From: Escherichia phage jat
Strand: one strand, 5' to 3'
DNA length: 44,417 nt
Sequence record: NC_073076.1
Shown here: in pieces, positions 4,724-37,960 of the stretch
How positions within the stretch are numbered: position 1 is the stretch's first letter
Layout: each line of letters begins with the position of its first letter
The notes under the pieces: model-generated
Seen by the model: only the letters and a program-made list of their open reading frames with translations
What the model was told of the DNA's origin: nothing
Databases searched by the model: none
Translations under genes and position numbers: made by a program

Positions 4724-5274
4724 TAATCACCCTGGCCTTTGCCGGTAGGTTCCACAACGACGTCGCCGTTATCATCTTCGTCGTCATCCAGCGGTACATC
4801 GTCCCTGACGCCGTGGTTAGCTTTAAGCAGGAAGGTAGCGAAGCCCGCCGCGATGGTCACGCCGCCAGCTTCCATCAGGAAGGTTTTTTGTAACTCCATT
4901 GCGTCCGCCATCGCCTCAGCGAACTCCTCATGCGCACGCGCCCAGCGATACAGGCAAGCTACGCCCACGCCGATTTCCGCGGCAAATCGACCGAAGGTTG
5001 GCATTTTGTTGCGGGGGATTACTTGCGCAGCGCCTTTATCAGAGTAGTTTACCTGCCAGGCGTCGGCGTCGGCAAAATAGCGGCGAAGCTGGTCGCAGTA
5101 AACGGATCGGTAGTCAGTAGGGCGTCCACATTTGCCGCCTTTACGGCGCTTTCCGTACTCGATTTCAGGTCCGAGATTGGTATGTTCTGTTTGCTCGCCT
5201 GGTTTACGGCGCGGGGTAACTGCTACTCGTCCGTCCAGTTTGGCGCGTCGGCCCTTTACTTTAATTTCTGCCAT
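4723..5274 (-). CDS. terminase small subunit (putative)
   Basis: 183 aa from ATG at 5274 (track ORF extends to 5373 but that would cover an upstream terminator hairpin); HTH-like segment TFGRFAAEIGVGVACLYRWARAHEEF; acidic C-terminus; immediately upstream of TerL. Confidence 0.5.
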   Translation of the reverse strand: MAEIKVKGRRAKLDGRVAVTPRRKPGEQTEHTNLGPEIEYGKRRKGGKCGRPTDYRSVYCDQLRRYFADADAWQVNYSDKGAAQVIPRNKMPTFGRFAAEIGVGVACLYRWARAHEEFAEAMADAMELQKTFLMEAGGVTIAAGFATFLLKANHGVRDDVPLDDDEDDNGDVVVEPTGKGQGD

Positions 5275-5356
5275 GATATAAGCCCTTTTGTGCATATGCG
5301 CCGACCATCGGCAACATAGGAGACGGCCCTGCCATCTAAGGTGGATTATAACAGGC

Positions 5357-5392
5357 ACAAAAAAGCCCACCAAATCGGCAGGCTGGGTGGCT
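5357..5392 (-). terminator. rho-independent terminator (minus strand)
   Basis: gcccacc / gggtggc imperfect stem (5365-5391), followed on minus strand by U6 (plus-strand A-run 5359-5364); just downstream of stop of 5405-6547 gene. Confidence 0.45.
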
Positions 5393-5404
5393 TACTGGCT
5401 GCCG

Positions 5405-6547
5405 TTACTTCAACATTTCCGGGCTAATGGTTAAGCGCGCTACTTCGCCGTAGTTGGCGCTGTAGGTAATGACGTTGGCGCTGCGACCGGACATCCAACC
5501 GCCACGACTGGCGTAGGCGTCTTTCGCTGCGAGCGTCCTGTGCTGTTCAACAATCATGTTGCGGGATTCAACAATCTTCTGGTGGTGCAAATGGCCTACG
5601 TGCGCGTAGCTGTATTCGCTCGACCCGAACGCCTGTCTGAATTTAGCGATCATAACCTGCTCGATAACATCGAATCGCGCTTTGTGCCCGTGGTGGAAGA
5701 ACAGCGTTGTCTTGCCGTGCTGCACCATTTTGTATACGTCCGGGGATGTATCCACATCGACGCGCGGCTCGTTCTCGTACAGCGTATTGAACATTTCAGC
5801 CAGCCAAATCATGCCAGACTCGTCATGATTCCCCTGGACGATTAGCAGTTTGACTTTGTGGTGTTTTTGCAGCGCCAGTTCCACCACGTTGCGCACCATG
5901 CGAATCATGTAGCGGACCAGCTTCTGGTAGCGGGTATCCGCGTCCAGTACGTGACCACTTGCCGGTGTGACGGCATCAAGGCTATCAAAATGCGCCATAT
6001 CACCGAGGATATTAATTACGGCAGTGCCTGCGTCCGGTGCGCGTGCGAAGGCTTCGACAAACCAGCGGAAGAACAGGTCTTCGGCAATCGCCATATCCCA
6101 ATCCTCGCCAGTCTCCTCGCCCCAGGCCAACATGCCCAGGTGGAAGTCGGACACGGTGTACAGGTTGAGCAAGTCTAGCGCCTGGATCGGTACTGGCGGG
6201 GCGTTTACTGGCGCTGCCGGTGTGATTTCGCTGTTCATACCCTCGACAACAGCGCGCATAGCTTCGAGTTGGCGCTCCTTGTCCTGCTCAGTGATGACCC
6301 ACGACATGACCTCTTCGCCATTACCGCGCACCAGGGCCGATACGCGCTTAACCCCAAAGCCATCGGCAACGCGCTTACGGATCACGGCATCATTGCCATG
6401 ACCAATCCCCTTTTTCGACAGGCGGGCTTTGCGCATATAGACATTTCGAAGTGCAATGCCGTATTTCTTCGCAATCTCTTTAACCGTAGTCCCTGCCTGA
6501 ATTTCTGCGATCAATTGCTCATCGGTAATTTTAGTTTGCGGGTGCAT
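5405..6547 (-). CDS. HTH domain fused to calcineurin-like metallophosphoesterase
   Basis: 380 aa; N-terminal HTH-like TVKEIAKKYGIALRNVYMRKARL; phosphoesterase motifs DFHLG, GDMAHFD, GNHDE, HHGH, GHLHH in canonical order; AGGAG SD. Confidence 0.7.
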   Translation of the reverse strand: MHPQTKITDEQLIAEIQAGTTVKEIAKKYGIALRNVYMRKARLSKKGIGHGNDAVIRKRVADGFGVKRVSALVRGNGEEVMSWVITEQDKERQLEAMRAVVEGMNSEITPAAPVNAPPVPIQALDLLNLYTVSDFHLGMLAWGEETGEDWDMAIAEDLFFRWFVEAFARAPDAGTAVINILGDMAHFDSLDAVTPASGHVLDADTRYQKLVRYMIRMVRNVVELALQKHHKVKLLIVQGNHDESGMIWLAEMFNTLYENEPRVDVDTSPDVYKMVQHGKTTLFFHHGHKARFDVIEQVMIAKFRQAFGSSEYSYAHVGHLHHQKIVESRNMIVEQHRTLAAKDAYASRGGWMSGRSANVITYSANYGEVARLTISPEMLK

Positions 6548-6568
6548 ATTTAATTAACTCCTGATTAG

Positions 6569-6596
6569 TGGACCGTGGACAATATACCACGGTCCA
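6569..6596. promoter_or_regulatory. perfect 10-bp inverted repeat, candidate operator
   Basis: TGGACCGTGG-acaatata-CCACGGTCCA, located about 22 nt upstream of the ATG of the HTH-phosphoesterase gene on the minus strand. Confidence 0.35.
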
Positions 6597-6608
6597 TATG
6601 GCGGCGGG

Positions 6609-6689
6609 CTATATCAATTCGCAAATAACCATGCCGATAAAAGCCGCGGTGGTCCAGATCGCTAATACCCAAATATCTTTACGTGCCAT
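6609..6689 (-). CDS. small hydrophobic peptide (26 aa)
   Basis: MARKDIWVLAIWTTAAFIGMVICELI; strong SD GAGAGGAG 7 nt upstream of ATG; below the 60-aa ORF-track cutoff. Confidence 0.3.
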   Translation of the reverse strand: MARKDIWVLAIWTTAAFIGMVICELI

Positions 6690-6750
6690 CTTGATTACTC
6701 CTCTCGTTGATTGGTTGCGGTATGGCCTCTATGTTGGTTGCGAGTCAAGC

Positions 6751-6778
6751 AATAAAAAGCCCGGTTAATTCCGGGCTT
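6751..6778 (-). terminator. rho-independent terminator-like hairpin
   Basis: agcccgg/ccgggct 7-bp stem with ttaatt loop, flanked by A5 upstream (U-run on minus strand) and T-rich downstream. Confidence 0.45.
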
Positions 6779-6784
6779 AATTGT

Positions 6785-6952
6785 TTACGCTGCGGGGCCA
6801 GATTCCTCCTGCGGTGGTGGGCTTGGCAGCTTCGCATCGAAGACCCCGGCGTGGTTGATAGAGTCCGCGATGATAGCGCGTGCGCCTGGGTCTTCGGTTT
6901 TAGCCAGTGCGGCAAGCGCGTCCGCATTATGATCAAGAATACTTTTTAACAT
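6785..6952 (-). CDS. hypothetical small protein (55 aa)
   Basis: MLKSILDHNADALAALAKTEDPGARAIIADSINHAGVFDAKLPSPPPQEESGPAA; GAGGTG SD; directly downstream of lysozyme gene and followed by terminator. Confidence 0.35.
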   Translation of the reverse strand: MLKSILDHNADALAALAKTEDPGARAIIADSINHAGVFDAKLPSPPPQEESGPAA

Positions 6953-6968
6953 ATCGTGTCACCTCGTA

Positions 6969-7460
6969 TTATGCAGCGTTACGACCGATTCGTTCGGCAA
7001 CGTCCCACTGCTTACCATCAAACAACGCCTGTCTGCCGATTGCACGGCGTACCAGACCCTTAAGCACTTCGCCACCTTGCTTGCGGAACTGCGGCAGCGT
7101 AGCACGGACCTTCGCCCAGTCGCCCAAGCGCACCGCGTCGTCGAAATCATTCGCGACGTCATCCGGTACGATCGGACCAGGACCGGCGTTGATTACCAGG
7201 TCCACCAGCGCGTCAAATTGCGCCTGGTTAATGCTCTTATGAGCGTATTTGTTCACCCAATCCTCGGCATACGCCACATCGCGCTTGAGCAGGGCCAGCG
7301 CTTCCTCGCGGGTAATGCTTCGAGGCGGATTAGTGCCGGTATGACCATAACCCCAGGTGTACAGGCCGCGGGCCTGCTCTTTCTTGGTCGCGAAATACGG
7401 CACCGGGCTGAAAGCCTCCCATGCTGCCGTGAATCTTAGACCGTTGTCACTGAATCGCAT
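6969..7460 (-). CDS. endolysin, T4/P22 gp19-type lysozyme (GH24)
   Basis: 163 aa; SDNGLRF...E..., TWGYGHTG and NQAQFDALVDLVINAG match the conserved blocks of P22 gp19 / T4 lysozyme family. Confidence 0.85.
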   Translation of the reverse strand: MRFSDNGLRFTAAWEAFSPVPYFATKKEQARGLYTWGYGHTGTNPPRSITREEALALLKRDVAYAEDWVNKYAHKSINQAQFDALVDLVINAGPGPIVPDDVANDFDDAVRLGDWAKVRATLPQFRKQGGEVLKGLVRRAIGRQALFDGKQWDVAERIGRNAA

Positions 7461-37642: not shown

Positions 37643-37960
37643 TATTCAGTCTCAGACGAGGGGGCCATTGACCCCCGTCTAGTCTGAAAGACTGGGGTGC
37701 TGTCCCGCTGTCCCGATCGGCTGAAAACCGCGGCAGCACTGGCTGGGACGGGGTGCTGTCCCGCTTTGTCCCGCCTAGTGTTTGTCCCGCTTTTTGTCCC
37801 GTTTGTTTTATGCACGAAAACCGAATACGTATGCACTTTTGTGGGGTGGGACAAAACGGGACGTCCCGCTTGTCCCGCTTTTATATTATGCAATGGAAGT
37901 GAGTAGGTATGCAGTTTCACATGGGTGGGACAAAACGGGACGTCCCGTTTTGTCCCGCTT
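37643..37960. repeat. iteron element copy B plus two 45-bp direct repeats containing GGGACGTCCC
   Basis: Hairpin 37648-37694 and TGTCCCGC/TGTCCCGT octamers at 37701, 37709, 37757, 37767, 37783, 37795; direct repeats 37831-37880 and 37909-37960, each with palindrome GGGACGTCCC followed by TGTCCCGC. Confidence 0.65.

Follow-up and report, generated by a model that had tools for sequence, protein, structure and literature searches.

A helix-turn-helix metallophosphoesterase gene of Escherichia phage jat belongs to a widespread phage family and is a candidate for a nucleic acid-directed phosphodiesterase

Results

The gene and its product

The DNA analysed here is the 44,417-nt sequence of Escherichia phage jat (NC_073076.1; this whole stretch is hereafter named the window), and the subject of this work is a gene on its minus strand, at positions 5405-6547. 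The list of open reading frames (ORFs) and the sequence itself revealed an uninterrupted ORF of 380 amino acids with an ATG start codon (6547-6545), the product of which had been described in an original prediction, made from the letters alone, as a helix-turn-helix (HTH) domain fused to a metallophosphoesterase (MPE). This HTH-MPE gene is an ordinary member of a known and very common phage family, and its product is probably a nuclease. It is flanked by the lysis cassette (holins, 7979-7447; endolysin, 7460-6969) on one side and by terS/terL (5373-3338) on the other, all on the same strand, which is the position between terminase and lysis genes that had been predicted. The coding features are as follows.

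5405-6547, minus strand: coding sequence of the HTH-metallophosphoesterase, PHROG 704 family, homologue of T1 ST16 (ORF, PHROG match, identity)
6371-6523, minus strand: N-terminal four-helix HTH, residues 9-59, probably of the LuxR/GerE or sigma-70 region 4 type, with the presumed recognition helix at residues 33-45 (model, profiles)
6227-6358, minus strand: family-specific connector, consisting of a long beta-hairpin (residues 64-88, with invariant S70 and W83) and a helix (residues 90-107) (model, invariant columns)
5408-6181, minus strand: binuclear metallophosphoesterase domain, residues 123-380, with the motifs DxH, GDxxH, GNHD, H and GHxH and without a capping domain after it

By the comparison of its DNA, the window is that of a Dhillonvirus. 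The HTH-MPE region is 94-96% identical to the corresponding DNA of SECphi4, PEC14, JL1 and bob, all of them Escherichia phages, and of about 100 others in the genus Dhillonvirus, and the protein was present in every Dhillonvirus examined, with 96-99% identity. The orthologue of JL1 is gp03, which is named "DNA repair exonuclease" in its record; other records use "calcineurin-like phosphoesterase", "putative phosphoesterase" or "HTH domain-containing protein".

The metallophosphoesterase domain retains all its metal ligands

The complete set of phosphoesterase motifs that had been predicted was located in the protein: SDFHLG (residues 133-138), GDMAHFD (182-188), GNHDE (239-243), HHGH (285-288) and GHLHH (318-322). 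Conservation was assessed in an alignment of 40 sequences from three clades (Dhillonvirus together with Jersey/Kagunavirus-like phages, Drexlerviridae, and Vibrio/marine phages), with identities to the query down to 27%. The metal-ligand positions D134, H136, D183, N240, H241, H286, H319 and H321 were invariant throughout, so the loss of metal-binding motifs on careful alignment, which would have spoken against the prediction, did not occur. G182, H186, G239 and G318 were also invariant, as were the family-specific H199 and D202 and, in the connector, S70 and W83. This invariance of the ligands indicates that the enzyme is almost certainly active.

The AlphaFold2 model of the protein (pLDDT 82.9, pTM 0.72) consists of a four-helix HTH (9-59), a long beta-hairpin (64-88), a helix (90-107), a less confident linker and the MPE sandwich (123-380). 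With its five metal-binding motifs placed on a beta-sandwich core, the protein belongs to the calcineurin-like metallophosphoesterase superfamily. About 58 residues remain after the GHxH motif, and in the model these form strands of the core sandwich only; therefore, there is no room for a capping domain of the Mre11 type.

Three catalytic types had been put forward in the original prediction. The proposal of a NinI-like Ser/Thr phosphatase did not hold, since the signature motifs of the PPP Ser/Thr phosphatases (lambda PP/NinI), namely GDxHG, GDxVDRG and GNHE, are not present; clearly, the HTH-MPE protein is not a PPP phosphatase. The evidence on the Mre11-like candidate was mixed. A profile search of the PDB sequences provided only weak matches, which for this part of the protein were to Thermotoga maritima Mre11 at the helix and GDxxH region (E 0.2), and no MPE subfamily besides Mre11 appeared in it; against this candidate stand the absence of the capping domain and of Rad50/SbcC. 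The protein may be slightly nearest to Mre11/SbcD and to the compact enzymes of the MJ0936 type. The fold is similar to that of the class III cyclic nucleotide monophosphate (cNMP) phosphodiesterases (CpdA/Rv0805) to a degree comparable with Mre11, and the sequence does not tell the substrate.

The HTH and the connector are conserved parts of the family

In the jat protein itself the Pfam matches to HTH domains were below threshold (GerE, 15.2 bits against a cut-off of 23.5; HTH_28, 15 bits), and the profile search of the PDB sequences aligned residues 8-58 weakly (E 0.02-0.1) with the LuxR/GerE-type HTHs of RhlR, DesR and GerE. Significant matches were obtained in its relatives (Sigma70_r4_2, E 2.3e-6; HTH_8, 9e-8; HTH_1, 2e-6; HTH_30, 5e-7), with at least 10 of the 40 aligned members giving a significant Pfam HTH match and the HTH kept across the three sampled clades. 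The modelled helices (9-17, 22-29, 33-45 and 53-59) had pLDDT values of 88-93. The fusion of an N-terminal HTH to the MPE is thus supported by the relatives and by the model, and since the HTH is recognised in many members, the fusion is old and conserved. The homologues from Campylobacter Fletchervirus lack the HTH, with hairpin and MPE both retained (hhalign E 6.5e-39); one of them, from Campylobacter phage F365 (L075, 4848-5801), is a family member of 317 amino acids with the beta-hairpin kept.

A family present in thousands of phage genes

The protein matched the profile of PHROG 704 ("DNA repair exonuclease") with an E value of 3.9e-161, residues 5-380 being aligned with positions 2-390 of the 390 in the profile, so that the match spans the HTH, the connector and the MPE. 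ST16 of coliphage T1 is 45% identical end to end, over 377 amino acids, and databases have consequently contained a member of the family since 2004, the year of the T1 genome. The domain reading and the gene position given in the original prediction stand, but this long-annotated and common family was missed in it.

Homologues were found by tblastn in 2,060 of 50,697 phage records, 1,680 of the matches covering at least 80% of the length, with Escherichia, Klebsiella, Salmonella and Vibrio as the main hosts. The family thus occurs in about 4% of the deposited phage genomes. An exhaustive HMMER scan, with E values up to 1e-3, provided one representative each for 4,658 clusters at 50% identity, the majority being 370-420 amino acids long. 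NCBIfam gave nothing significant for the protein (PdeM, E 0.43), a direct search of the PDB sequences gave only spurious matches to designed repeats, and the study of SECphi4 escape mutants does not mention the gene. The names attached to PHROG 704 in the databases ('DNA repair exonuclease', 'putative phosphoesterase', 'winged HTH domain-containing protein') are derived from homology, and the label "DNA repair exonuclease" is a remote-homology guess. The gene of jat is ordinary; what makes the family noteworthy is its breadth, its invariant active site and its high identity across genera whose terminase and lysis genes mostly show no detectable similarity to those of the window.

A conserved -10-like element lies inside a variable palindrome

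The elements located around the gene that may control its expression are the following.

6558-6562, minus strand: Shine-Dalgarno sequence AGGAG, 10 nt before the ATG (sequence; relatives keep AGGA(A/G))
6569-6596, no strand assigned: perfect 10-bp inverted repeat with an 8-bp spacer, bracketing the -10 element, specific to Dhillonvirus (sequence, comparison)
6581-6589, minus strand: extended -10 promoter-like element TGGTATATT (TGnTATATT), mostly in the palindrome spacer, with an inferred transcription start near 6574 (pattern scan, conservation)
6757-6778, no strand assigned: bidirectional intrinsic-terminator-like hairpin upstream of the unit, with an 8-bp GC-rich stem and then a minus-strand T run (terminator scan)
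5364-5384, minus strand: intrinsic-terminator-like hairpin followed by TTTTTT, 20 nt after the HTH-MPE stop codon, closing the unit before terS (terminator scan)

The perfect inverted repeat that had been reported upstream of the start codon was verified as TGGACCGTGG-N8-CCACGGTCCA at 6569-6596, with 21 nt between it and the ATG. By chance, 0.55 perfect 10-bp inverted repeats with a loop of 3-12 nt are expected anywhere in the 44-kb window (probability of at least one, 0.36), and the presence of one inside the 60 nt upstream of this start codon has a p value of about 0.002 against shuffles. The spacer and the inner arm together contain TGGTATATT (coding strand, 6589-6581), an element of the TGnTATAAT type.

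The upstream regions of the jat window and of 14 Dhillonvirus relatives were compared. TGGTATATT and its neighbouring bases (C-x-TG-N-TATATTG) were invariant in all 15. Apart from the window, L004 alone had perfect palindrome arms; in nine relatives the arms matched at 8-9 of 10 positions, and in L007, L009, L010 and L014 they were clearly eroded. Pairing of the arms (81% of cells, against 78% in shuffles; 14 sequences) showed few compensatory changes, and a core, GGACCG-N16-CGGTCC, was retained without change in 10 of the 14 aligned sequences, with a single-base difference in L012. All 15 proteins shared the same HTH residues 33-45; because the arms are eroded in four of these phages, the putative operator and the recognition helix do not co-vary, and the half-sites are not kept wherever the cognate HTH is kept. 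The 10-mer half-site did not occur above chance elsewhere in the jat genome. Most of the other genera with homologues lack a significant upstream inverted repeat, T1 included, where there is none because ST17 abuts the ST16 start codon. An unrelated perfect 9-bp inverted repeat lies over its own -10-like element in the clade of L048 (p about 0.006).

In our reading, the conserved functional element would be the promoter, and the palindrome would be a genus-specific feature around it. The palindrome could be an operator. Autoregulation through the HTH, as originally predicted, was not supported by the comparison: the invariant part is the -10 centre, the arms erode next to an identical helix, further half-sites do not exceed chance, and T1 and other genera do without the palindrome. 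These comparative data argue mildly against autoregulation and do not favour a strict requirement for the HTH of the protein at the palindrome.

Other roles of the palindrome were considered. An intrinsic terminator was ruled out by the absence of a T run after it. A conserved RNA hairpin is unlikely: compensatory changes are marginal, and a functional -10 element would place the start of transcription inside the 3' arm, so that the RNA would contain this arm alone and the predicted hairpin would not form. No RNA family was detected by an Rfam scan of positions 5200-7000. The window contains only one other perfect inverted repeat of at least 10 bp with a short loop, at 37927-37956 in the region of the structural genes (13-bp arms, 4-nt loop), which is probably a terminator.

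The transcription unit and its variable borders

The terminator at 5384-5364 is conserved in L001, L003, L005-L007, L009 and L010. The interval between the MPE gene and terS shows insertion/deletion polymorphism: about half of the Dhillonvirus relatives (L002, L004, L008 and L011-L014, at about 5137-5350 of each locus) have, instead of the terminator, an ORF of 70 amino acids, whose start overlaps the MPE stop codon (ATGA). Right after the jat terminator and upstream of terS, an extended -10 sequence of perfect consensus, TGTTATAAT, is located on the minus strand at 5345-5353. The terminase operon thus appears to have a sigma-70-type promoter of its own, of the same kind as the candidate before the HTH-MPE gene. 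We did not retain the idea that promoter plus hairpin is a general theme of the late region. Most of the other TGATAA-type matches contain stop-codon triplets and lie just before terminator-like hairpins; they may be gene ends rather than promoters.

The upstream spacer of 209 nt (6548-6756) contains a minus-strand ORF for a hydrophobic peptide of 26 amino acids (6683-6603, MARKDIWVLAIWTTAAFIGMVICELI) and an antisense plus-strand ORF of 66 amino acids (6568-6768), annotated as gp04 in JL1. In L003, L005, L007, L009 and L010 this spacer has been deleted or exchanged for another sequence, and neither ORF is therefore conserved.

Two database records related to the jat region are also of note. 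'Acinetobacter phage NJ01' (OQ221563.1) is 95% identical to the jat Dhillonvirus region, and its host label looks doubtful because of this identity to DNA of E. coli phages. The 88.6-kb record P-GXEC-L2P5 (PQ843332.1) holds the HTH-MPE region twice and is probably a concatenated assembly.

The gene has different neighbours in different genera

In one Kagunavirus the tail module contains the homologue in the opposite orientation, which must therefore be transcribed on its own there. The homologues of T1 and Samwise (Drexlerviridae) follow the genes for the helicase and Dam and precede the lysis genes, that of Vibrio phage K168 lies between lysis-type genes and an HNH endonuclease, and that of Campylobacter phage F365 directly downstream of a Holliday-junction resolvase and a DNA ligase. 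Owing to these different placements, we abandoned a link of the gene with the terminase or with packaging. At about 10 Kagunavirus-type loci (L016, L019, L022, L030, L034, L042, L043, L045, L050 and L056) the MPE stop codon overlaps (ATGA) a gene for a HAD_PNKP polynucleotide 3'-phosphatase (Pfam E 8.5e-21), which is followed by a P-loop (GPAGCGKD) protein of 189 amino acids. Together, these genes may form a cassette for end healing or nucleotide metabolism.

The HTH-MPE proteins of Dhillonvirus and of the Kagunavirus/Jersey-like phages (loci L015-L056) are 73-82% identical. Counterparts of the jat terS, terL, endolysin and holins were not detected in almost all of these loci, with distant terL matches (39-50%) in only three of them. 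Such a high identity next to unmatched terminase and lysis proteins suggests that the HTH-MPE gene is under unusually strong constraint or has been exchanged horizontally as a module.

Discussion

A possible nucleic acid-directed enzyme

Of the readings considered here, the most likely is that the HTH-MPE protein is a metal-dependent phosphodiesterase that is tethered by its HTH and acts on nucleic acid, a proposal that we hold to be about as likely as not. It would be a phosphodiesterase of the Mn2+/Fe2+ type, most likely a DNA exo- or endonuclease held on the DNA by its own HTH, and could serve to break down the host chromosome or to process DNA ends as the phage replicates and recombines. 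In jat, the gene would form a small transcription unit with its own sigma-70 extended -10 promoter (TGGTATATT, 6589-6581) and intrinsic terminators on both sides. Because the palindrome brackets this element, its occupation by any protein would block the access of RNA polymerase to the promoter. The proposal is favoured by the retention of the HTH across the three sampled clades, by the enzymes of nucleic acid end chemistry that are neighbours of the gene in other phages (resolvase, ligase, HAD_PNKP) and by the Dam gene that precedes it in T1 and Samwise. DNA-end processing is the role suggested by the ligase, resolvase and PNKP genes. For a role in host-DNA breakdown, two phage MPEs offer precedents: T5 A1, a predicted metallophosphatase, is necessary and sufficient for host DNA degradation (bioRxiv 10.64898/2026.04.02.716235), and Gp48 of mycobacteriophage A10ZJ24 is an early MPE with phosphodiesterase activity that damages host DNA (PMC12287305).

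Several points weigh against this reading. The scores of the HTH-MPE protein for Pfam Metallophos_2 and Metallophos were below the gathering cut-offs, and hhalign revealed no significant sequence relation to T4 gp47, of the Mre11/SbcD type, beyond single motifs. Homology to T5 A1 had an hhalign probability of 0.5%, with a match of 20 columns at the GNHD-like motif III only. The candidate promoter is a consensus match only, and the context evidence is weak because the neighbouring genes differ from genus to genus. The searchable literature provided no experimental work on any member of the PHROG 704/T1 ST16 family, be it expression, activity or knockout data. In addition, an enzyme that carries an HTH may be a regulator (a trigger enzyme) instead of a DNA-directed nuclease.

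This last point leads to the possibility that the protein, as a dimer, binds the palindrome through its LuxR-type HTH, represses its own promoter and so limits its own synthesis, a model that places no constraint on the catalytic activity. Dimeric binding to inverted repeats is common among LuxR/GerE HTHs. The repeat of jat is perfect, locally improbable and brackets the -10 element; the centres of the core half-sites, intact in most of the aligned sequences, are separated by about 20 bp, close to two turns of the helix, and the clade of L048 has an unrelated repeat in the same kind of position. We consider this autoregulation possible but rather unlikely, because a perfect repeat occurs by chance somewhere in 44 kb about one time in three, most other genera (T1 among them) lack one, covariation is marginal, no further half-site exceeds chance in the genome, and four Dhillonvirus relatives have eroded arms with the same recognition helix. 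A bolder proposal, offered tentatively and as somewhat less probable still, is that the family represents a third independent lineage of phage MPE nucleases devoted to host takeover, after T5 A1 and Gp48, in which the DNA binder is fused to the enzyme, and that the Dhillonvirus protein would also shut its own promoter via the palindrome, limiting toxicity. If this were true, the enzyme that degrades the host chromosome would be encoded by a gene that is among the most frequent unexplained ones in enterobacterial and marine siphophages.

Other substrates would give the same active site a different purpose. Hydrolysis of the cyclic (oligo)nucleotide messengers of CBASS, Pycsar, Thoeris or type III CRISPR systems, with the HTH serving for regulation or localisation, is improbable: no specific link to messenger-degrading enzymes and no match to any PADLOC model was found, the neighbours are DNA/RNA-end enzymes and not anti-defence genes, and a cytosolic hydrolase of small molecules has no evident need for a DNA-binding domain conserved across the family. 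Those same neighbours would suit a 2',3'-cyclic phosphodiesterase or 3'-phosphatase that mends tRNA or DNA ends cut by host nucleases, in concert with a PNKP-type phosphatase/kinase and a ligase, as suggested by about 10 related loci in which a HAD_PNKP gene overlaps the stop codon and precedes the P-loop protein, and by the ligase upstream in Campylobacter phage F365. MPE domains perform end healing in bacterial Pnkp, the MPE of which is lambda-phosphatase-like, but this fold class scores poorly for the HTH-MPE protein; furthermore, the association is found in a minority of loci, inside a variable accessory region, and the jat window has no adjacent kinase, phosphatase or ligase, which makes end healing very improbable for jat. 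A Ser/Thr protein phosphatase would be in keeping with the shared superfamily and with the NinI/lambda-PP-like enzymes that lambdoid phages carry; already disfavoured by its missing signature motifs, it is the least probable. Whichever function were established for T1 ST16 or for a Dhillonvirus member would carry over to thousands of genes and replace their guessed "DNA repair exonuclease" label.

Comparison with known systems

The closest counterpart is T1 ST16, which has the same full-length architecture, is located beside the lysis cassette and likewise has an annotated terminator directly downstream. T1 differs from jat in lacking both the palindrome and a separate promoter-like element directly upstream, ST17 ending a few bases before the start codon. 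Among the classical mutants of T1 are some with a defect in breaking down host DNA.

Mre11/SbcD (COG0420) has a capping domain, whereas the jat protein has none and carries an N-terminal HTH and a beta-hairpin instead. No Rad50/SbcC partner was found among the 60 annotated genes of JL1, which is 95% identical, or beside the homologues in four other genera. The protein is therefore not a canonical Mre11/SbcD. The class III cNMP phosphodiesterases (Rv0805/CpdA/Icc) and the compact MPEs (MJ0936, YfcE) have neither the HTH nor the hairpin module, and no sequence-level match to any of them was found.

T5 A1 and mycobacteriophage Gp48 are, like the HTH-MPE protein, phage proteins of the MPE superfamily. 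A1 differs in its size (556 amino acids, against 380 in jat) and in being pre-early, and no relation of its DNA-binding partner A2 to the HTH-MPE protein was detected by hhalign. By analogy, the pair formed by A1 and A2 resembles the enzyme and the DNA binder that are fused in the single protein of jat.

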